Shown here piece after piece: positions 1-56,746 of a stretch of DNA of 64,000 nucleotides. The position numbers and the translations under genes were made by a program. The first letter of the stretch is position 1. Every line of letters begins with the position of its first letter. Source of the stretch: Candidatus Doudnabacteria bacterium (GTDB lineage Bacteria > Patescibacteriota > Doudnabacteria > UBA920); NCBI GenBank assembly GCA_003151625.1, contig PLYC01000010.1, positions 4,283 to 68,282 of the forward strand. The letters are read 5' to 3'. Below the pieces are notes generated by a model. That model searched no databases. It had not been told where the DNA came from and worked only from the letters and a program-made list of their open reading frames with translations.

Positions 1-2929
1 CAACCTTTTTGTGTTCCTCTTTAAAGCGGTCGAATTTAATTGTTTCCACCACCAGCCGCATAAGTTCTAAAAGTTCCTGTTTTAATTTTATTACATCATC
101 CGGGGTGGCTAGCTCTTCTTCCAAGAAGAGTTTTTGCTTTTCCTGCAAATACCAGTATTTAAGGCCCACAACTTTTTCTTTTAAATATTTCTGTGCCGCC
201 CACTGGTAAATATAGAGTTGGTCGATGTCCTTTTTTCCGGATTTCTTTGGAAGCTTTCCTGTTTTATAGTCATAAATTATAAGACCCTGGTCGTTCAAAT
301 CTGCGCGGTCAATTCTGCCGACTAGCCTGAATTTATCCAAAAATAAAATAAAAGACTGTTCAATATATTTTGGCCTCGGCATATTAGCAACGCATTCGTC
401 GTAGAATTGCTTTAGCATTTGTTTGCCCTGTTTAAAGTAATCTTCTTTTTGTTTTTTTGTCTGGTACCATTCGTCTACCCAGTTTTTTTCGTAGAGTTTT
501 TCCAAAGACTCAAAGCTGGGCAAAACCGGGACGGTTTTACTTTTGCCAAACAAATCTTGTTGGGCAAAAGTTGTTGAGTCTTTAAACTCCCGCAAGTACT
601 CTTCAAAAACTTTGTGGATGGTGTTGCCAAAACTTAAATATTGGCTGCCCTGCACCGGGAGCTTTAAATAATATTGATATTTATATTTTAGCGGGCAGGT
701 TTCAAAATCTTTTAGCTGCGAATACGAAAATTTTTCGGGTAAAGTTAAAAAAACCTGCTCTTTTTTTGAAGCTTGCTTGTTAAAAACAACTTTACCGGTG
801 GCTTTAGTAGCTTTTTCGCTTGGGATTAATCCGGACTCGACTAAAAATTGCGAAGGTTTTTTATTTAGTTTACCGCCGTAATCTTTTGACCAGGTTAAAA
901 ACAGATTTTGTTTAGCTCGGGTAATCGCAACATAAAATAGTCGCCTTTCTTCCTGTAAATGGAAATCGCCTTGCGGTAAAATGTCCTTTATAAGGTCTTT
1001 GGGGATTTCAATGGCATCTTTTTTACCCAGGGTCGGAAAGCGCTTGTCAACCAGGTTAATAACAAAAACATTTTCGAATTCAAGCCCTTTGGCGCTGTGG
1101 ACGGTTAAAACCTTCAGGCTCTCCGGGCCTGAATCGGGGTTAAAATTAATTTTGCCCTCGTCGCCGGCCTGTTCTTCCAGTTCCAGCGAACGTAAAAAGT
1201 TATGCACGCTTTTGTCTTTGGCCTGTCCTTCGTAATTTTCAATTTTTTTGTAGAATTGTTCTATTAATTCCCTGTTCTCGGCGTTCTCCTGAGTTTCGTC
1301 TTCCAGCCTTTCGGCCATCTTTAAATCTCGAATTATCTCTACGGTAGTTTCCGCGGCACTTTTTGTTTGAGAAAACGCGTGGTGTTTATGTAAATTTGAC
1401 GTGAGCAATTCCAACTTTTTTCTTGCCTGATCGGTGAGTAGGCTTCCAACTTTGAGTTGTTCTAAAGTTTCAAAGAGGGTCAGAGTTTTTTTGCGTGAAA
1501 ATTCTAAAATTGCCGCAATATCATTTACGCTTAATCGAAACAACGGAATGTTTAGGACGCGGTAAAGTGAAAAGGAGTCTTCGACATTGTCCAGTAATTT
1601 TAAGTAGGCAAGAAGATCTAAAATAATCGGCTTTTTATACAAACCGGTGTTGGCCAAAAAAGTGTGCGGTATTTGCGCGTTCTCCAGCGCCGGTAACAAT
1701 GATTCAGCCGCTCCGTTGCTTCTTATTAGGATAGCAAAATCATTCCAGGTATTCTTGGGTGATTTAAGTTTGATAATTTTTTTGACGACCTCATTTATTT
1801 CCGAATTTAAATCCGGAGCTTCTACAACTTCCACGGTTCCCTGGCTTTTCACGTTAGCCAAAAGTTCCTTATTGATTTTCAGTTTAATCTCCAGCCTGTC
1901 GGGGTTGTTCTGCTGGATAAATTTGTAGGCCAAATCCAAAATTTGTTTGCCGGAGCGGTAGTTTTCCACCAATGTTATTTCTTTTAATCCTGGATATTCG
2001 TCCTTAAACTTTAAAATATTGGAAACGCTGGCGCCGCGGAATTTGTAAATGGATTGGTCATCGTCCCCCACTACGGCCACATTTTGTTTGTCACCGGCCA
2101 GAAGTTTGACCAGCTGATATTGCGCGTAATTGGTGTCCTGGAACTCATCCACCATTAAATATTTAAATTTATTTTGGTAATATTTTAAAATTTGCGGGCG
2201 CTTTTGAAAAAGCAGAAGAGTGTAATTTATCAAGTCGCCAAAATCCAGGTAGTTATTATCCAGCAGAAGTTTTTGGTAGACGTGATAAGCGTTGGAGACT
2301 TCTTCCAGGCGGGAGATTTCGGTTTGATCAATTTCAGTGTAGTTAGCCGATTTATCGGCTGTTATTTGTGAGTCCATGAATGGGCTGGCTACAGCTTCCG
2401 CGCTGTCCGTCGATAATCTTAATCTCTCCGCGTACTCCAAATATTGCTCCGGGGTAATAAGTTCGTCTTTGCACTTGGAAAAATGCGAAAGCAAGCCGCC
2501 AATAAATTTGGCGGGGTTGCCAAGGGGTTTGTAGTAGTCCAAGTCAAATTTTTCAAAATTGTTGTAAATCAACACCCATTGTTTGGTTCCGTCGAGCAGT
2601 TCAAAATCGTTGGGCAGACCAATGTCCAAAGCATGAGTCTTTAAAATGCGCTCGCAAAAGCTGTGGAAAGTGGAAATCCAGGTATCTACGTAGCCAATGG
2701 GTAAAATTAAGTCGACCCGTTCCTGCATTTCCCCCGCGGCCTTATCGGTAAACGTTAACGCTAAAATTTCATCCGGTTTTGCCAATTTTTGTTCTATTAA
2801 ATAAGCAATTCGCCTCGTAATCACAGTTGTCTTCCCCGTCCCCGCACCAGCCACTATCAAAAGCGGCCCGTTTCCATGGGTAACGGCACTTTCTTGCTCT
2901 TTATTTAAATTTTTCAATAACTCTTTCAT
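1..2929 (-). CDS. UvrD/PcrA-type superfamily I DNA helicase fused to a C-terminal PD-(D/E)xK (RecB/Cas4-like) nuclease domain. The N-terminus is at 2929; the extreme C-terminus runs off the window start.
   Basis: My own translation of the minus strand from the ATG at 2927-2929: MKELLKNLNKEQESAVTHGNGPLLIVAGAGTGKTTVITRRIAYL (Walker A GAGTGKT), then helicase motifs continuing for >950 aa. Near the window start: RIDRADLNDQG..IYDYKTGK..QLYIYQWAA, i.e. D..D/EYK nuclease motifs plus QxxxY. It is absent from the ORF track because it is truncated by the window edge. Confidence 0.7.
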   Translation of the reverse strand, partial: MKELLKNLNKEQESAVTHGNGPLLIVAGAGTGKTTVITRRIAYLIEQKLAKPDEILALTFTDKAAGEMQERVDLILPIGYVDTWISTFHSFCERILKTHALDIGLPNDFELLDGTKQWVLIYNNFEKFDLDYYKPLGNPAKFIGGLLSHFSKCKDELITPEQYLEYAERLRLSTDSAEAVASPFMDSQITADKSANYTEIDQTEISRLEEVSNAYHVYQKLLLDNNYLDFGDLINYTLLLFQKRPQILKYYQNKFKYLMVDEFQDTNYAQYQLVKLLAGDKQNVAVVGDDDQSIYKFRGASVSNILKFKDEYPGLKEITLVENYRSGKQILDLAYKFIQQNNPDRLEIKLKINKELLANVKSQGTVEVVEAPDLNSEINEVVKKIIKLKSPKNTWNDFAILIRSNGAAESLLPALENAQIPHTFLANTGLYKKPIILDLLAYLKLLDNVEDSFSLYRVLNIPLFRLSVNDIAAILEFSRKKTLTLFETLEQLKVGSLLTDQARKKLELLTSNLHKHHAFSQTKSAAETTVEIIRDLKMAERLEDETQENAENRELIEQFYKKIENYEGQAKDKSVHNFLRSLELEEQAGDEGKINFNPDSGPESLKVLTVHSAKGLEFENVFVINLVDKRFPTLGKKDAIEIPKDLIKDILPQGDFHLQEERRLFYVAITRAKQNLFLTWSKDYGGKLNKKPSQFLVESGLIPSEKATKATGKVVFNKQASKKEQVFLTLPEKFSYSQLKDFETCPLKYKYQYYLKLPVQGSQYLSFGNTIHKVFEEYLREFKDSTTFAQQDLFGKSKTVPVLPSFESLEKLYEKNWVDEWYQTKKQKEDYFKQGKQMLKQFYDECVANMPRPKYIEQSFILFLDKFRLVGRIDRADLNDQGLIIYDYKTGKLPKKSGKKDIDQLYIYQWAAQKYLKEKVVGLKYWYLQEKQKLFLEEELATPDDVIKLKQELLELMRLVVETIKFDRFKEEHKKV

Positions 2930-2997
2930 CGACTTTTTTAAATTTATAACTTTTAATTAATAACCAACAACCCAAAACCGCTGTTATAAGTTATAAA

Positions 2998-3444
2998 TTA
3001 TTTCTTATTAGTTATAAACTTTGTCCACTGCTTCCACAAATCCATACCGTCGTCTTTATAATTCGCCCAAAATTGCGCGGGATTGGTGATTTTTACGCCG
3101 TGATAGTTTTCAATGCTTAATAATGCGTTATCAGATGTTACCAAATACTCAGCCTTGGCTTCCACGGCACTTTCCAAAATTTTATTATCTTCCGGATCCG
3201 ACACTACCCGAATTTGCCTACGATTAACAACCCAATTAATTTGGGCGAATAAATCGTTTAGCTCTTTTTGGTAAGCATCGTTGTTTATCAACTGACCGCT
3301 TATTAGTCTATTCTCCTGCAAGGTCTGCCTGTTGGCAAAAGCCTCAATTTCTCCGGCGATAACCGCGTCTATAATTTTTTTTTCGTAAGAATATTCGTCT
3401 TTAAACCCGTTTATTAATACATTGGTATCGAGGACTATTTTCAT
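2998..3444 (-). CDS. PIN-domain ribonuclease (VapC-like toxin)
   Basis: N-terminus MKIVLDTNVLI, with conserved acidic residues (DPEDNKILE, LVTSD) spaced as in PIN domains. 148 aa. Its start overlaps the stop of the upstream small ORF by 4 nt (ATGA). Confidence 0.65.
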   Translation of the reverse strand: MKIVLDTNVLINGFKDEYSYEKKIIDAVIAGEIEAFANRQTLQENRLISGQLINNDAYQKELNDLFAQINWVVNRRQIRVVSDPEDNKILESAVEAKAEYLVTSDNALLSIENYHGVKITNPAQFWANYKDDGMDLWKQWTKFITNKK

Positions 3445-3719
3445 TTTGTGATTCTATAATATATGGGGACGCCCGATGATAATTTATAAATAATTCTTCT
3501 TGCTAAAAGATGCCGAAGCAGCTCTCTTAAGTGCGAATGTGAGTGATGAAGCGGTATAGTCTCCACCTTAGCCCGCAATTCACTAAACGAAAATTCTGTA
3601 TCGGGAAATTCTTGGTTGATTATTTGCTCAAGAGCAACGATATCCGTTTCAAAATTATCCCTAGTTTCTGCTTTAAATGAACGGCCGTCTGGATTATTAT
3701 TTTTTTCTGTCATCTGCAA
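3441..3719 (-). CDS. Putative antitoxin or DNA-binding partner of the PIN toxin
   Basis: 92-aa ORF directly upstream of the PIN gene with a 4-nt overlap. C-terminal region LRELLRHLLARRIIYKL..GVPIYY looks like a winged-helix recognition helix. Confidence 0.4.
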   Translation of the reverse strand: MQMTEKNNNPDGRSFKAETRDNFETDIVALEQIINQEFPDTEFSFSELRAKVETIPLHHSHSHLRELLRHLLARRIIYKLSSGVPIYYRITK

Positions 3720-3729
3720 GAAAATTAAA

Positions 3730-4026
3730 TTACAATTTTGACTTGACCTTTTCGTATGAAAAAAAACCGGACTTTGGATCGTTTAGAAGAGAGCCTTTAA
3801 TCAGACCTTTGGCTAATAACGAGTCAATAATTTGTTTTAAGCCGCCTTTATTTTCGTTGTAGTCCTTTGAACTCACGATGAATCTGTCTTTCCTGATTTT
3901 TAAAAACTCTGATTCCTCAAAAGTCGGGTTTAAATCAATGCCCAATTTACCGGACTTGATGTCAAGTTGCTTAATTTGCTCTTCTGAAATTCCTCTATAT
4001 CTGCTTGGGTCTTGTTCGTCGGGCAT
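3730..4026 (-). CDS. Hypothetical 98-aa protein (possibly an OST-HTH-like partner of the NYN protein)
   Basis: ORF packed tightly between the NYN gene (3-nt gap) and the antitoxin-like ORF (11-nt gap). No recognised motif. Confidence 0.35.
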   Translation of the reverse strand: MPDEQDPSRYRGISEEQIKQLDIKSGKLGIDLNPTFEESEFLKIRKDRFIVSSKDYNENKGGLKQIIDSLLAKGLIKGSLLNDPKSGFFSYEKVKSKL

Positions 4027-4028
4027 AT

Positions 4029-4547
4029 TTATTTCCTCCCGGTCTTAATGGGCATTAAAAATTTGCGCGGATTTTCATCAAGGTCTATAAAATAATCTGT
4101 TAAAACTTTTATTTTACCGCTGCAACTTTTTCCGAAAGCTAAGGTTTCTGTAAACTGGCCGGACATTTGCAGATACTCTAAAAGCGGTGCGTAGTCCCCG
4201 TCGCCCGAAGCCAAAACCACCACATCCAATTTATTCATCAACTTTACAATATCCATAGCAATGCCCACGTCCCAATCCCCTTTTTGATGCCCTCCGGCAA
4301 AGGTTTGCAATTCTTTAACCTTTACTTCAAAACCAGCCTTTTCTAAAGCCTCAAAAAATGTATGTTCCTCGGGCATATCGGCCTTAACCACATAAGCAAT
4401 GGCGCGAATTAATTTTCGGCCTGCCACGGCCTCTTCTAAAACCTCGTTAAACTTAACTCTCGCGTTATACATATTGCGCGCAGAGTAGTACAAATTCTGC
4501 ACGTCCACGAACACTCCTACTCTTTGATCCGGGTTTCTTATAGACAT
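4029..4547 (-). CDS. NYN/LabA-like domain protein (predicted RNase)
   Basis: VGVFVDVQNLYYSARN ... VVVLASGDGDYAPLLEYL, with acidic residues placed as in the NYN (PF01936) fold. Confidence 0.6.
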   Translation of the reverse strand: MSIRNPDQRVGVFVDVQNLYYSARNMYNARVKFNEVLEEAVAGRKLIRAIAYVVKADMPEEHTFFEALEKAGFEVKVKELQTFAGGHQKGDWDVGIAMDIVKLMNKLDVVVLASGDGDYAPLLEYLQMSGQFTETLAFGKSCSGKIKVLTDYFIDLDENPRKFLMPIKTGRK

Positions 4548-4548
4548 A

Positions 4549-4791
4549 TTATTGGTTTTTATAATAAAATTTTATAGATAAAATTATTGCCGTAATCCAA
4601 ATCGCTAGCCAAACAAGCAATGTAGTTAAAAAAGATCGATCACTTTGCCAATTTCCCGCCACTCCTAAAGGCGCTATTAGTAAAGATGCCCCAATGATTA
4701 GCGAGGCAATGATTACTGCAATTACCGAAAAAATCTTTCTTGATGTTCTTTTTTCCGCATCAGTTGGTGGCGGAAACAATTTGCTTGTCAT
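4549..4791 (-). CDS. Small membrane protein
   Basis: 80 aa with two hydrophobic helices (IFSVIAVIIASLIIGASLLIA, LLVWLAIWITAIILSI). Stop lies 2 nt from the NYN gene start. Confidence 0.4.
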   Translation of the reverse strand: MTSKLFPPPTDAEKRTSRKIFSVIAVIIASLIIGASLLIAPLGVAGNWQSDRSFLTTLLVWLAIWITAIILSIKFYYKNQ

Positions 4792-4800
4792 AAGATTAAA

Positions 4801-5820
4801 TTACTCCAATGATTTTTGCTGGTCAGCCTCTTTAACCTCATCCAGCTTTAATGACGATGCATTGGTAATACTGGTTTTTAGTTTTGCAAAATCGTTGGTT
4901 ACCGTACCCATGGTGTTGCCTGCGTTTTTTATATGGTTGCCTAGGACGTCTAAGTTACGGCCGAATTTGTCGGATTCCTGTTTAATTCCCGCAATCATTG
5001 CAAGTATTTGCTGGGCGGCTTCGTTAACCTTTTGGCCGCGAAGCGATAGTAAAATAATTTGCAGGTGATGATAAAGCGTGTTTGGGCTTACAAAGTAAAC
5101 TTTCTTTTCACGGCCGTAGCCCAAAGTCGGTGTATCGTCCAGCACTTCGCTAAACACGCCCTCGCTGGGAATATACATCAGCGCAAAGTCAAAAGTGTTT
5201 TCCTGCGGTAAAATATATTTTTTGTGGATTTCGTCTACGCGTTTTTTCACGTCTTTTAAAAATGTTTTCTTTAAAGCCTCCTTGGCTTCATCCGTCGTGG
5301 CTTCTTTATAAAGTCGGAAGTTTTCCATACTAAATTTACTGTCTATGGGCAGAATTTTTTCGCCAACGTAAATAATGGCATCTACGACTTCGCCATTTTT
5401 GAACTTATACTGAATTTGATAGCCGCTTTTAGGCAAAGCCTGCGAGAGCATATTTTCCAGCATCTCTTCGCCAAAGTTGCCTCTTAATTTAGGTGAGGCA
5501 AGGGTTTCGGTAAGGCGACGGATATCTGGGCCTACTTGAGATATCCCTCCAAGCTCCTTGGTCAGCGCCGCAATAACGCGCCCTGCGTTATCCAGACGTT
5601 CGTTAATGGCCTTGTTGGTTTCATCTATGGATTTTTGCATCCCCACCCTGGTTTGATCCGTACCCTGCTTAATTTCCTTCATCCACTCCATCATAACCTT
5701 CATTCCCTGGTCGTCCGCGGGCTTTTGCGACTGTTTTTTTAAATCAACTAAAAAATTAAATAAAAAACCAAAACCCGCCAAAAGCACGAGGATTATTATG
5801 TAAAGAATGCCTGTTTGCAT
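4801..5820 (-). CDS. rmuC: DNA recombination protein RmuC
   Basis: N-terminal TM helix and coiled-coil, then the RmuC core (LPKSGYQIQYKF, PIDSKFSMENF, LMYIPSEGVF). Confidence 0.75.
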   Translation of the reverse strand: MQTGILYIIILVLLAGFGFLFNFLVDLKKQSQKPADDQGMKVMMEWMKEIKQGTDQTRVGMQKSIDETNKAINERLDNAGRVIAALTKELGGISQVGPDIRRLTETLASPKLRGNFGEEMLENMLSQALPKSGYQIQYKFKNGEVVDAIIYVGEKILPIDSKFSMENFRLYKEATTDEAKEALKKTFLKDVKKRVDEIHKKYILPQENTFDFALMYIPSEGVFSEVLDDTPTLGYGREKKVYFVSPNTLYHHLQIILLSLRGQKVNEAAQQILAMIAGIKQESDKFGRNLDVLGNHIKNAGNTMGTVTNDFAKLKTSITNASSLKLDEVKEADQQKSLE

Positions 5821-6062
5821 GAGTTTATTATACTATAACGGTTGGCCAAAAACAACCTCTTGACAAATTAGCAATCTTGGGTATAGAGTGATAATAGATG
5901 CAAAATCATAAGCGCCGCTTGGGGCTTGAAAGTTAGGAGAGGACGGGATTATCCCGGAATGAAGCCGGGAAAAAGAGAGCCCTCCCCTATCCTTTGGCCC
6001 TAATACGGCAAAGAATGAATAAACGTAAAGACCGCCTGTGTGGCGGTCTTTTAATATGTAAT

Positions 6063-6138
6063 GGCGGACTGAACGGGACTCGAACCCGCGACCTCTCCCG
6101 TGACAGGGGAGCGCTCTAACCAACTGAGCTACCAGTCC
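6063..6138 (-). tRNA. tRNA-Asp (GTC), CCA encoded
   Basis: Minus-sense ggactgg-ta-gctcagttggttagagc-g-ctccc-ctGTCac-gggag-aggtc-gcggg-ttcgagt-cccgt-tcagtcc-g-cca. All stems pair. Overlaps the spurious ORF 5833..6123. Confidence 0.8.
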
Positions 6139-6146
6139 GTATTTTT

Positions 6147-6223
6147 TGGTGTCGGAGAGAGGAATTGCACCTCTGACCTTGGGCTTATGAGTCCCACGCT
6201 CTAACTAACTGAGCTACTCCGAC
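6147..6223 (-). tRNA. tRNA-Met (CAT), probably initiator type, CCA encoded
   Basis: Minus-sense gtcggag-ta-gctc...agc-g-tggga-ctCATaa-gccca-aggtc-agagg-tgcaatt-cctct-ctccgac-a-cca. Three consecutive G-C pairs at the base of the anticodon stem (initiator hallmark). The T-loop has an unusual G at position 55. Confidence 0.65.
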
Positions 6224-6289: not shown

Positions 6290-6665
6290 GTAAAATCTGT
6301 CACGATTTTAGAATTATAAGCACTTATTCGCCCCGTACCAGTCGTATGACTCCGGTGCAGGGCATAAACCAGTCGCCCATTCAGCACTCACAGTATCCAC
6401 TTAATTGGTTTGTGGCTGTGCCATAAACCGGAGCGAACACAGTGAGCGACTGGTTTATGGTTGCGGGACCCGGACTCGAACCGGGAACCTCAAGGTTATG
6501 CATACCACTACAACTTTAATTGCTTCGCAAAATTGCGAATTTGTGGTCTGGACTTTCTCTTTACCCCGACAAATTGTCTGGGTATCTACCATTAAGTCTC
6601 TACACCTTCTCCAAAAAATAAGCCGGAGCTTGGCTCGGGATTACCACCGCTAAGGGCTTCCCCGA
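6290..6665 (-). ncRNA. Candidate structured RNA upstream of and co-oriented with tRNA-Met/tRNA-Asp (possibly RNase P RNA; identity unresolved)
   Basis: No credible ORF; the track ORF 6405..6653 is low-complexity. Minus-sense contains AGAAAGUCCAGACC (resembles the RNase P CR-I/P4 5' strand GGAAAGUCCGG), a UGAAUG..CUGGUUUAU segment (resembles CR-IV/V ..GAUGAAUG..CCGGCUUAU), a 14-bp inverted repeat cataaaccagtcgc/gcgactggtttatg, and a tRNA-like T-arm + acceptor 3' strand + CCA (ggttcccggttcgagtccgggtcccgcaACCA, plus-strand 6451-6483) that lacks a matching 5' acceptor strand. Confidence 0.25.
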
Positions 6666-6937
6666 ATTTGATAGATTATCACGCTGGAATTACTCCCTGC
6701 GTAGCCCATTTAAAGATTAGTTACAAGCGGAGCTAAAAAAACTAACCATACTAACAACTTGAGCCTTGCGAGCTGCCAATTGCTCTATCCCGCAAATACA
6801 GTTTACAATAATTCAATAAAAAAAGCAACACCAAGCGGTTTTTTAGGTTTGTGAACATCAAAGTCCAAGTAAAAAGGCCTTATTTACACTAACGTTAAGC
6901 CGACATTAGTGTAAATGAATGATTTATTGCGAAATAA

Positions 6938-54753: not shown

Positions 54754-54973
54754 TAAAATTAGTGCTTAGTAATTAAGGAATAGTGCTTAGAGTAAAGCAG
54801 ATACAAAGTATTATAACAGAATAGGCGATAAATAAAAAGGGGTTCGAAGCATAATAAATGTCTTTCAATTTTGATAAAATTTTGGCAAATTGAAGGCGGG
54901 GTTGGAATAAAATTAATATCTTTTATTACTTTACCCCGCCGCTTTGCCTTCTCGCTTCCAAGTGCATCGGCGC

Positions 54974-55249
54974 TTAGACAACGCTTTCAGCGACTGCCTT
55001 CGCTTCCGGTCTGCATAACAGCAGGTTCAGCGATACAACCATTGAAGGTTTGTTGCATGTTGCGCAACGGGTTGTGTGGCCGGCTCCGGTCAGGTGTAGG
55101 CAGTCCTCGAACAACCACACAATACCAGGCGCGCCGCCTTTGAGCTTATCCAGCAAGCTCTGTTGGTTTCTGTCGAGGACGACAAGAGCCTCCAGCCTTT
55201 GGACAACTTCTAAGTACTTTACCGCTTGTTGCTGCGTAGCAGGTGACAT
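54974..55249 (-). CDS. Small ORF X3 in the GC-rich cassette (91 aa, perfect AAGGAG Shine-Dalgarno)
   Basis: ccttAAGGAGaaacgATG; the protein has a Cys/His cluster HTTRCATCNKP. Compositionally distinct from flanking genes. Confidence 0.3.
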   Translation of the reverse strand: MSPATQQQAVKYLEVVQRLEALVVLDRNQQSLLDKLKGGAPGIVWLFEDCLHLTGAGHTTRCATCNKPSMVVSLNLLLCRPEAKAVAESVV

Positions 55250-55509
55250 CGTTTCTCCTTAAGGATGTAATTGCCGGGATTAGCCGACTCAAACTAAAAA
55301 ACTTCCGCCTTCGTTAAGGTCGGAAGTTCGGAGTCGATGAGGGTTTTACGCTTTGTTTATCAACTCAAAATTTCCAAGCTCAACGCCCAGCGTAAAATAA
55401 AAATAGAAATTTTGAGTTAAATTATGCATTTCCATTATTTTAGCAGGTTTGTATATATTGTCAAATTATGTACTGTTGTCAAATTATTAAAGAGGAAGCC
55501 GCCCGCCTC

Positions 55510-55698
55510 CTATGTTCCGGATTTGGGCGGCTTTTGCTTGCGAGGTTTGAACCCGAATCTCTTCCTAAAGGAAGAAACGGTCATTTTCTCCGACGTGAGA
55601 TCCGTGGAAGCCCCTGCGTACAGGGTTTTCCTCCGGTAAGTTACGGTCAAACTGCCGCTTGGCAGCCATTCGTAGTTATGAAGTTCGCAGCTATTCAT
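55510..55698 (-). CDS. Small ORF X2 in the GC-rich cassette (62 aa, GGAGGG Shine-Dalgarno)
   Basis: ctGGAGGGtctATGaat; basic C-terminus RKRFGFKPRKQKPPKSGT. Confidence 0.25.
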   Translation of the reverse strand: MNSCELHNYEWLPSGSLTVTYRRKTLYAGASTDLTSEKMTVSSFRKRFGFKPRKQKPPKSGT

Positions 55699-55928
55699 AG
55701 ACCCTCCAGTCCGTGCGACAAGCCAGCACTCTTGTTCGCGATGTAAATTTGTGCTGGTGATTAAGCAATTAAGTGCCCAATCATCAAAACAAATCTTGGG
55801 GGTGAAGAAGGTCACCCCGGCCTTTGACTACAGTGCAAAGCACGAATTGATGAAATCAGTCGTTTGTGCGTCATTTATTTTTCGTTGAAGGCCCTCTACG
55901 CATCGGAGGCAAGACATTTTCCCTGTTG

Positions 55929-56088
55929 TCAAACAGTCCATTGAATATTCACGGCCTTTTCTGCTCTACTTGACTGCCGATTACGATTTGCGTAGTTACC
56001 ATATGTTTTTCGGTATTGTCGGCTCATTGCCGTAAATCGAAACTGCTCTTGTTCGAATTGTGTTTTAAGCTGTGCCAATGTAGACATC
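55929..56088 (-). CDS. Small ORF X1 in the GC-rich cassette (52 aa, AAGGAG Shine-Dalgarno)
   Basis: ccAAGGAGaacagATG; preceded by the palindrome tgcaaatatttgca at 56221-56234. Confidence 0.25.
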
Positions 56089-56340
56089 TGTTCTCCTTGG
56101 GCGAGCGGCTGCCAGCGCGCAATAATCCGCTCTGTAGTGTTTGCGCTGGCGAGGCATCCCAAATAAAAAGGAGGCGGCGTCAGTGCAAATAAAAAACACC
56201 CTTGGGCAAAACCCGCGGGTGCAAATATTTGCACTTTTGAAGGGCTTGCCTAGGAGGCCACCCACCAAACTAAGTTAATACTTTGTGACAAAATCTTCAT
56301 ATCTGTATACTATACCAATGTGGATCCTTTGTCAACTACT

Positions 56341-56352
56341 GTACTAGTACAC
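56341..56352. promoter_or_regulatory. TrpR-type operator palindrome TGTACTAGTACA (distal copy)
   Basis: A perfect 12-bp palindrome embedded in the 23-nt direct repeat ctactgtactagtacactaatac. It contains the CTAG core of the Escherichia coli trp operator half-site GTACTAGT. Confidence 0.5.
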
Positions 56353-56433
56353 TAATACATACGATTTAGGCGACTTTTGATCCAACCAACAGGTTGTCCA
56401 CAGCCCTTGAAACAAAACCCGCAACGTGCTACT

Positions 56434-56445
56434 GTACTAGTACAT
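56434..56445. promoter_or_regulatory. TrpR-type operator palindrome TGTACTAGTACA (proximal copy, 14 nt upstream of the ATG)
   Basis: Second copy of the same 23-nt repeat, ctactgtactagtacattaatgc. Confidence 0.5.
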
Positions 56446-56458
56446 TAATGCTACGAAT

Positions 56459-56746
56459 ATGAAATATGTACATGAGTATGGAGTGGAGTTGGAGGAGTTG
56501 ATTAAAAAAGCTTCTAAAAGCCAAGCGTTGTTACATGAATTTTTGTTCGATTTGCTGTCCCCCGCCGAATACAAAGACTTGGCAGTTAGGTGGCAAATTG
56601 TCAAACAGCTACAGAAAGGGCTTTCCCAAAGAGACATCGCCAAAAACCTCAAAGTAAGTATTTCAACAGTTACAAGAGGCTCCAGGGAAATGCTAAACAA
56701 AAAAGGCGGATTTTCCCAACTACTAAACAAACATTATTCAAAGTAA
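56459..56746 (+). CDS. TrpR/YerC/YecD-family transcriptional regulator
   Basis: LLSPAEYKDLAVRWQIVKQLQKGLSQRDIAKNLKVSISTVTRGSRE matches the Trp-repressor-like HTH fold family. Confidence 0.65.
   Translation: MKYVHEYGVELEELIKKASKSQALLHEFLFDLLSPAEYKDLAVRWQIVKQLQKGLSQRDIAKNLKVSISTVTRGSREMLNKKGGFSQLLNKHYSK

Follow-up and report, generated by a model that had tools for sequence, protein, structure and literature searches.

A Candidate Control Region for Tryptophan and Aromatic Amino Acid Supply Upstream of Small-Protein Genes in a Candidatus Doudnabacteria Genome

Introduction

What is a 1.7-kb stretch without a long gene doing between secA and a trpR-like gene, and does it belong to the genome in which it was found? 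The stretch (positions 54754-56458) lies in a window of 64,000 nt, the whole stretch of DNA analysed here, from contig PLYC01000010.1 of a Candidatus Doudnabacteria bacterium, and its longest open reading frame (ORF) has at most 101 residues. An earlier note on this DNA had described it as a compositionally distinct cassette holding one operon of three small ORFs (X1, X2 and X3) and had considered a foreign origin. The reading that we favour, with a probability of about 0.72, is that of a native hub which senses tryptophan and the supply of aromatic amino acids through a TrpR-type repressor plus attenuation, and which is wired here to small proteins.

Ribosome-stalling leader switches normally govern enzymes of amino-acid biosynthesis, and bacteria of the Candidate Phyla Radiation (CPR; Patescibacteria) are believed to rely on hosts for their amino acids. 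To our knowledge, almost nothing is known about gene regulation in CPR bacteria. Our view of this genome is the 64-kb window, and the relatives with which it is compared, given by locus handles such as L001, are different species of Candidatus Doudnabacteria.

Results

Predicted Promoter P1 and the Candidate Tryptophan Leader A

The minus strand carries two candidate transcription units, P1 with X1 and X2 and P2 with X3, each opening with a leader-peptide attenuator (coordinates are collected in Table 1), so the regulated set of small-protein genes proposed in the earlier note is supported and its single operon is replaced by two. The geometry of P1 is repeated in relatives. Leader ORF A starts 6 nt after the -10 box of P1, reads ATG AAG ... 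TGG TGG GTG GCC TCC TAG and has no Shine-Dalgarno (SD) sequence, and the P1 transcript is therefore predicted to be a leaderless mRNA. Some 24 related loci, with 22 distinct leader sequences between them, share this layout, the ATG lying 6-9 nt past the -10 box with no SD. Their leaders contain WW, WWW, WxW or only one W within codons ~8-18 and otherwise vary, the peptide being poorly conserved beyond the Trp codon.

In these homologues the Trp codons are followed by a hairpin and then by a second hairpin with a T-run, in a shared order of CTTTGC after the Trp codons, GCAAAGCC downstream and GGCTTTGC inside the terminator; a terminator hairpin with a T-run is present behind leaders A and B in all relatives inspected. 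Two stems of attenuator A differ from those of L001 by compensatory changes, from CACCC/GGGTG to CACCT/AGGTG and from GTGCAA/TTGCAC to GTGCG/CGCAC. In folds constrained by a ribosome footprint of -15 to +15 nt (an approximate value), 9 of the 13 folded leader A copies lose the terminator with the ribosome on at least one Trp codon and form it with the ribosome at the stop codon, and inspection of the folds finds the same switch in L001. This combination suggests that leader A is a trpL-like attenuator, with an antiterminator behaviour that is predicted in silico. The palindrome that the earlier note had seen upstream of X1 is present as gtgcaaatatttgcac, and together with the "G/C hairpin" it is accounted for as a part of the attenuator, not as an operator.

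A variant of leader A with three consecutive Trp codons (MTKTIGIIKAQAAWWWALRNREVRDFIAS) is found in L100 and L102, 144-233 nt from the trpR start, and the ORF downstream of it has GGWDWDNDD near its N-terminus.

Predicted Promoter P2 and the Candidate Aromatic Leader B

Promoter P2 is kept in 13 of 15 relatives, and the ATG of leader B lies 7 nt after its -10 box, again with no SD, in a predicted leaderless arrangement. Leader B was found in 15 loci with the consensus M..LTQNFWFYFT.GVE.GNFEL; its run of aromatic codons encodes FYFYF in the window, comprises 5-8 codons across the 15 loci and includes Trp codons too in relatives. The window copy is 80-86% identical to its orthologues, and leader B behaves as a reading frame because the frame is maintained through in-frame 6-nt indels and synonymous changes (15 loci).

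The RNA downstream can adopt the pairings expected of a classical attenuator, with region 3 overlapping the 5' arm of the terminator. Pairing in the 1:2 hairpin amounts to 94% over 17 pairs. For the 2:3 antiterminator the value is 91.1% of 336 cells (24 pairs, 14 sequences), and 5 compensatory pairs were counted; slid controls range from 20 to 56%, and none of 500 shuffles attains either the pairing or the covariation score of the real sequences. The terminator is only 51% paired in the MAFFT alignment, because its stems differ in register, and terminators are present in the individual folds. With the ribosome on the first aromatic codon, the folds of the window, L004, L017 and L036 form the antiterminator, and with the RNA free or the ribosome at the stop codon the same four form the 1:2 hairpin and the terminator. 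Leader B is thus best described as a predicted aromatic-codon attenuator with 1:2, 2:3 and 3:4 pairings, whose switching is reproduced in silico.

A Trp-Repressor-Like Gene and Its Predicted Operators

The product of the divergent gene matches Pfam Trp_repressor (PF01371) with E 3.1e-19 and 69.3 bits (cut-off 27), and its score against YerC/YecD, 19.9 bits, is far under its TrpR score of 54.8 bits. A profile of nine orthologues searched against solved structures finds the E. coli Trp repressor at the top (E 4e-6). The Arg of "..vRwqiv.." aligns with E. coli R54 and the TRGS motif with T83-S86, so that residues equivalent to R54, R84, G85 and S86 of E. coli TrpR are all aligned. The protein is predicted to be a repressor with Trp as its co-repressor.

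Exact copies of TGTACTAGTACA occur twice in the 64 kb, both at this locus, where they form the sites O1 and O2; at 2 or fewer mismatches there are 3 matches in the window, a number that 0 of 100 shuffles reach. GTACTAGTAC adjoins trpR-like genes in 78 of the 160 fetched loci, and the spacing of 4-5 nt between O2 and TTGACA is kept in relatives. A palindrome with a CTAG core, TGTACTAGTACA resembles the E. coli trp operator GTACTAGTTAACTAGTAC. The two sites are predicted to be TrpR-type operators bound by the repressor at both promoters, and since O1 lies over the repressor gene's own promoter the gene would therefore be autoregulated.

Several further arrangements were seen around these genes. 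In distant CPR lineages (L106-L160) the single GTACTAGTAC is not upstream of the trpR-like gene but ~70-90 nt past it. A putative tryptophanyl-tRNA synthetase ORF generally stands directly before the trpR-like gene in the same lineages; in L108 (4032-5360) the resemblance is by the HIGN and KMSKS motifs. In L083, L008, L014, L095 and L098, P1 directly drives an SD-led small ORF with neither leader peptide nor terminator, and only repressor control is evident.

Genes Behind the Leaders in Relatives

The most telling observation on what these leaders control comes from the genes that follow them in other species. In L002 a DAHP synthase (Pfam DAHP_synth_1, E 5.6e-81; NCBIfam NF006421, 495 bits) begins 43 nt past the leader B terminator. 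In L004 and L099 the genes behind leader A encode a SerK/SbnI-like protein of kinase type (~101-135 aa) and TrpB2 (NF009057, 708 bits), and in L005 trpB2 likewise lies upstream of secA; the serK-like and trpB2 genes are at L004:2096-3815 and L005:164-721, and trpB2 of L099 (reverse of 1-5000) is ~814-2097 nt from the trpR start. TrpB2 enzymes are described in PMC11917138, citing Busch et al. 2014, as having a high affinity for indole and using O-phospho-L-serine to make Trp. With this in mind, the serK-like and trpB2 pair in Doudnabacteria looks like a salvage route from indole and O-phosphoserine to Trp. Among the independent lines of evidence, these cognate targets in relatives speak most strongly for the view that the leaders are Trp and aromatic attenuators.

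Targets serving the supply of the cognate amino acid were found in L002, L004 and L099 and not in the window, where leaders A and B precede X1, X2 and X3 only. A literature search, with subscription journals outside its coverage, found no paper on attenuators or TrpB2 in CPR/Patescibacteria.

A Two-Helix Motif in the 5' Untranslated Region

A further RNA element occurs twice in the window, before X1 (copy 1, 36.2 bits, E 1.7e-6 with a covariance model) and before X2 (copy 2, 45.9 bits, E 4.7e-9). It spans ~45-55 nt and consists of a helix S1, CCAGCRC...GYGCTGG, in which R and Y always covary with an A-U to G-C swap, a loop beginning with AAA, and a loop segment complementary to a tail segment that starts 0-5 nt past S1 (helix S2). 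The S2 pairs change in sequence across copies: GAGCGG/CCGCTC, GCGGTC/GACCGC, CCAGG/CCTGG, GAACTCAAG/CTTGAGTTC, GCGGACG/CGTCCGC and GCAGGCG/CGCTTGC. The duplex of a loop with its own tail has an energy of -12.1 kcal/mol, against -8.7 +/- 0.5 for permuted pairings, and 0 of 3000 permutations reach the observed value.

In 929 kb there are 23 copies at E<0.02, every one in this locus type, of which 21 lie outside the window (e.g., L002:3603-3654, L009:5658-5713 and L090:3820-3871). The motif always stands upstream of a small ORF in the trpR-secA interval, with SD and start codon ~10-25 nt past it, and the ORFs behind it belong to several unrelated small-protein families; it matched no Rfam family. 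Because the linker after S1 is very short (0-5 nt), the two helices may alternate instead of coexisting as a pseudoknot. The motif would presumably add translational or stability control of X1 and X2.

The Small ORFs and Their Flanking Hairpins

All three short ORFs described in the earlier note were found on the minus strand, each with a ribosome-binding site (X1 AAGGAG 5 nt, X2 GGAGG 4 nt and X3 AAGGAG 5 nt before the ATG), and the stem after X2 (aagccgccc/gggcggctt, 9 bp) and the hairpin after X3 (ggcggggt-N30-accccgcc) are likewise present. Nothing above the Pfam cut-off was found for X1-X3 (two matches below it, both of X1), and nothing at all in PHROGs, NCBIfam and PADLOC, which leaves the suggested toxin-antitoxin or anti-defence module without a match of its own. 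Pseudogene debris of the enzymes seen in relatives was also considered; X1-X3 are not recognisable as such, since in tblastn searches of the window TrpB2, the SerK-like protein and DAHP synthase all stayed at E>0.1.

The family to which X2 belongs, of 54-72 aa with one member annotated at 90 aa, is small: a profile search retrieves 6 proteins only among 5.8 billion. Matches by tblastn lie directly upstream of secA in L003, L005, L009 and L037, and the family's genes mostly sit right before the secA promoter, in L009 directly behind leader A. The AlphaFold2 model has a predicted local distance difference test score (pLDDT) of 75.6 and a beta-beta-beta-alpha topology, with no match among PDB folds (best E 0.56). 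When other small ORFs of the locus were compared with the X2 family by hhalign, the probability was 16%, which leaves a common superfamily unproven. At least three further recurring small-protein families occupy other slots in relatives.

For X3 the AlphaFold2 model (pLDDT 45) is too poor for use. A 1233-aa TPR-repeat protein, which matched X3 in seven stretches in a library of 1.84 billion proteins, was considered as a relative and set aside as an effect of repeats or composition. In relatives, leader B is usually followed first by an ORF for a small protein that has two CxxC pairs, and X3 seems to fit this class of Cys-proteins by its position and Cys pattern rather than as a proven family member. 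Besides X3, the product of the neighbouring hpf gene is found in public records.

The hairpin behind X1 was not picked up by a strict terminator scan. Relatives have tGgTATAATttaac, analogous to the extended -10 promoter of secA, after the terminator and directly before secA. The presumed 5' untranslated region of secA contains, just upstream of the start (54760-54790), a direct repeat of TAGTGCTTAG in two copies 21 nt apart, and no clear SD is visible for secA.

Composition and Synteny of the Stretch

The compositional distinctness noted earlier holds in part. By its tetranucleotide distance from the window as a whole, the stretch ranks in the top 4%, and the GC content at third codon positions (GC3) is 0.61 in X2 and 0.59 in X3, against 0.43 in the window's long genes. 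The GC excess itself is modest: 44.5% for the stretch (47.5% for its core, 54940-56260) vs. 41.5% for the window, a value matched or exceeded by 13% of equal-sized windows, and the neighbouring secA has 44.7%.

SecA assigns the window to Candidatus Doudnabacteria. The order hpf, trpR-like gene, regulatory leaders, secA recurs in related Doudnabacteria (SecA identity to the best relatives 84-87%), with an interval from hpf to secA of 43-5241 nt, and a subset of relatives has, as in the window, a divergent trpR-like gene followed by a long ORF-poor stretch. Conservation at the DNA level inside the stretch is limited to three blocks. A blastn search against plasmids, phages and E. coli genomes gave zero matches, and neither an integrase nor repeat boundaries nor a tRNA target came to light. 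Since the order of the flanks and the internal blocks are syntenic with relatives, the junctions are supported and the segment, as judged by this comparison, is native Doudnabacteria DNA and a conserved control region. The "enterobacterial style" of the earlier note has a real basis in the regulatory logic (a TrpR operator with a trpL-like leader) and not in contamination.

The hpf-secA interval (L001-L075) is a hot spot of gene turnover, its contents differing by species: small ORFs, an ORF of ~172-179 aa common to several loci (L024, L026) and, in L021, a 1119-aa ORF rich in Thr/Pro repeats. Elsewhere in the window, a group I intron match (RF00028, 66.9 bits, 6526-6728, minus strand) lies ~300 nt from genes for tRNA-Met and tRNA-Asp (6062-6223).

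Table 1. Features of the trpR-secA interval and its edges (positions in the window).
Feature	Position	Strand	Remarks
trpR-like gene	56459-56746	+	95 aa, Pfam Trp_repressor
Operator O1, TGTACTAGTACA	56433-56444		Predicted; overlaps putative -10 of trpR-like promoter
Putative trpR-like promoter	56407-56412, 56430-56435		TTGAAA, 17 nt, TACTGT
Operator O2, TGTACTAGTACA	56340-56351		Predicted; 4 nt upstream of P1 -35
Promoter P1	56307-56335	-	TTGACA, 17 nt, TAGTAT; 10/12 consensus matches
Leader ORF A, MKILSQSINLVWWVAS (then stop)	56250-56300	-	Tandem Trp codons 56262-56267
Attenuator A RNA	56191-56263	-	Hairpins, region 2, terminator
Attenuator A, hairpin after Trp codons	56242-56263	-	
Attenuator A, region 2, GGCAAGCCC	56242-56250	-	Can pair with GGGTTTTGCC, 56205-56214
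Attenuator A, inner hairpin (palindrome gtgcaaatatttgcac)	56219-56234	-	
Attenuator A, terminator, CACCCGCGGGTTTTGCCCAAGGGTG + T6	56191-56221	-	Stem 56221-56197, T-run to 56191
Conserved block 1			trpR upstream region, P1 and leader A
Two-helix motif, copy 1	56103-56149 (wider span 56098-56150)	-	Before X1; S1 CCAGCGC/GCGCTGG, S2 GAGCGG/CCGCTC
X1	55929-56088	-	52-aa ORF, doubtful coding; SD and two-helix motif upstream
Terminator-like hairpin after X1	55786-55818	-	GGGGTGA/TCACCCC + T-rich tail; read from sequence
Two-helix motif, copy 2	55715-55757 (wider span 55709-55758)	-	Before X2; S1 CCAGCAC/GTGCTGG, S2 (A)CAAG..GCGA / TCGC..CTTG
Conserved block 2			~50 nt preceding X2
X2	55510-55698	-	62 aa, small Doudnabacteria-specific family
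Stem-loop AAGCCGCCC...GGGCGGCTT	55496-55533	-	Spans X2 stop codon; weak terminator
Promoter P2	55437-55464	-	TTGACA, 16 nt, TG-n-TAAAAT; 11/12 matches, extended -10
Conserved block 3	55355-55466		~110 nt, 80-86% identical in relatives
Leader ORF B, MHNLTQNFYFYFTLGVELGNFELINKA (then stop)	55346-55429	-	Aromatic codons 55394-55408
Attenuator B RNA	55296-55418	-	Region 1 55406-55418, region 2 55360-55375, region 3 55322-55337
Attenuator B, terminator	55296-55327	-	ACTTCCGaCCTT-AACG-AAGGCGGAAGT + T6
X3	54974-55249	-	91-aa orphan, C-x-H...C-x-x-C; annotated in public record
Hairpin after X3, GGCGGGGT-N30-ACCCCGCC	54895-54940	-	
secA extended -10 promoter	54810-54818	-	TGtTATAAT; read from sequence

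Discussion

Proposed Mechanism

These elements can be arranged into a simple scheme, in which the transcription starts, 3' ends, termination, ribosome stalling, repressor binding, leaderless translation and the response to amino acids are all predicted. When Trp is plentiful, the TrpR-like holo-repressor would occupy O1 and O2 and shut both promoters, and a ribosome translating leader A would reach its stop codon, so that the terminator forms and P1 transcripts end at ~56191. When charged tRNA-Trp is scarce, the ribosome would stall on the WW codons of MKILSQSINLVWWVAS and open the hairpin after them; the freed 3' arm GGCAAGCCC could then pair with the inner part of the terminator, and the polymerase would continue into X1 and X2 through the motifs in their 5' untranslated regions.

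The switch of P2 and leader B would work independently of this first unit. With Phe and Tyr in sufficient supply, the 1:2 hairpin and the 3:4 terminator would form in the leader B RNA. When they run short, a ribosome stalled on FYFYF of MHNLTQNFYFYFTLGVELGNFELINKA would cover region 1, region 2 would pair with region 3 as the antiterminator, and P2 transcripts would reach X3. The secA gene would be driven by its own promoter behind the X3 hairpin and is probably touched only by residual read-through.

Weighing the Evidence and the Alternatives

Several results weigh against a working hub of this kind. X1 has no homologue, is absent from the protein collection and from the public annotation, and scores worse by codon usage than either of the other two frames, because of which it may not be a real gene; sequence searches with X3 yield X3 itself and one dubious match. 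No trace of TrpB2, the SerK-like protein or DAHP synthase was found by tblastn in the gap or the rest of the 64 kb. The TrpR-like protein stays below the cut-off of NCBIfam TrpR TIGR01321 (54.8 vs. 67.25 bits). No Rfam family matches the region at E<=1, and no leader family reaches its gathering threshold there; at E<=10 the matches are chance ones, except for a sub-threshold match to Phe_leader (RF01859; 19.4 bits, E 2.1, cut-off 55), which does not recur in relatives. In the window's own attenuator A, the terminator is the minimum-energy fold in every ribosome state, and pairing of GGCAAGCCC with GGGUUUUGCC as the antiterminator is confined to co-transcriptional prefix folds of 90-100 nt, because of which this copy could be leaky or decaying. 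Much of this would be expected of a regulatory relic, in which ancestral serK-like and trpB2 genes behind leader A and a DAHP synthase behind leader B have been lost and what remains, namely leaders, motifs and short ORFs, is in decay, X1 and perhaps X3 being chance ORFs. The absence of the enzymes from slots that they fill in L002, L004, L005 and L099, the non-coding-like X1, the orphan X3 and the thermodynamically weak switch A all speak for such a history. We nevertheless consider it unlikely, as the promoters retain 10-11 of 12 consensus positions, both leader ORFs, the terminators, the 5' motifs and all three SDs are intact, X2 belongs to a conserved family, leader B keeps the 80-86% identity given above, and in many relatives too (L001, L081, L082, L086, L090) only small ORFs follow the leaders.

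The persistence of leaders without enzyme genes could also mean that the terminated leader RNAs or the leader peptides are themselves functional products acting in trans, with the downstream ORFs secondary. There is precedent in Sinorhizobium, where rnTrpL and peTrpL are an attenuator-derived small RNA and a leader peptide with functions in trans (PMC6614838 and PMC7298713), and the nucleotide conservation of leader B exceeds its coding need. No target complementarity was identified, the leader A peptide is poorly conserved apart from its Trp codon, and a role in trans would add to attenuation in cis without replacing it; we regard this explanation as quite improbable. The origin proposed in the earlier note, as foreign DNA (a toxin-antitoxin or anti-defence module, or what is left of a phage or plasmid) or as a chimera of the assembly, can appeal to the GC3 of X2 and X3, to the tetranucleotide distance and to slot contents that differ between species, because of which the locus must turn over quickly. 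With no plasmid, phage or E. coli similarity, no PADLOC or PHROGs match, Pfam matches only below the cut-off, no sign of an integrase, repeat boundaries or a tRNA target, and both edges and the internal leaders syntenic with relatives, there is very little left to recommend it.

For the native Trp- and aromatic-sensing hub itself, one extension may be named as a conjecture that we think doubtful: that the two-helix motif is a new RNA switch sensing a ligand or factor (e.g., Trp or indole) and gating, under aromatic shortage, a repertoire of fast-evolving small proteins of an epibiotic CPR cell, which would include the X2 family and the small Cys/His proteins that follow leader B. By analogy to the anti-TRAP protein of B. 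subtilis, the latter might have the regulator itself as their target. If this were true, Trp-sensing machinery inherited from biosynthetic operons would have been put to new use in a programme of starvation response or host interaction.

Comparison with Known Systems

A close parallel is the E. coli trp operon. Common to both are a TrpR-family repressor, a palindromic promoter operator whose core is ACTAGT, a further operator at the promoter of the repressor gene, tandem Trp codons in a short leader ORF (the E. coli trpL peptide ends ...GWWRTS) and mutually exclusive antiterminator and terminator hairpins. The present locus differs in its predicted leaderless leader mRNA with no SD, in an operator just upstream of the -35 box instead of one overlapping the -10 box, in having tiny ORFs as targets in place of trpEDCBA, in its CPR host and in the lack of an Rfam Trp_leader match. 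Leader B is comparable to the Phe leaders (pheL of pheA, RF01859) in its run of aromatic codons in a leader of ~27 codons, in its 1:2, 2:3 and 3:4 pairings and, in L002, in its aromatic-pathway target, DAHP synthase; unlike them it mixes Phe, Tyr and Trp codons on a predicted leaderless mRNA, precedes the small Cys/His protein X3, and has an RF01859 score below the gathering threshold, so that membership is not supported by sequence. Phe codon runs in pheL are described in PMC3082878.

According to bioRxiv 10.1101/834739, leaderless polycysteine short ORFs attenuate operon expression in mycobacteria, which is similar in that a leaderless first short ORF with the sensed codons controls downstream genes; the amino acid and the phylum are different, and a terminator and an antiterminator are evident here. 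In Chlamydia trachomatis, attenuation of trpRBA is reported to depend on YtgR (PMC7755916), and that system, too, joins a host-dependent bacterium, TrpR, an indole-salvage tryptophan synthase and premature intergenic termination. The design here is of the classical leader-peptide type, and the window locus has no synthase. The two-helix motif, for its part, is similar to the H-type pseudoknot riboswitches preQ1-II and SAM-II in its length of ~45-55 nt directly 5' of the SD and in combining one sequence-conserved helix with a second covarying helix that joins the loop to the 3' tail; it departs from them in having its SD outside the helices, a linker of no more than 0-5 nt after S1, unrelated small proteins downstream and no Rfam match.

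Implications

The mechanism itself would thus be a known one, and what appears to be new is its setting: a CPR host, predicted leaderless mRNAs, an RNA motif of its own and small-protein targets. If read correctly, the locus would place classical dual control of the trp type, by repressor and attenuation, together with an aromatic attenuator, both leaderless, in a CPR lineage, where the same switches stand before indole salvage and DAHP synthase in some relatives and before tiny proteins in the genome of the window. It would also provide a set of small proteins co-regulated with amino-acid supply and a new structured RNA motif, and with them a handle on how a minimal symbiont may respond when Trp, Phe and Tyr run out.

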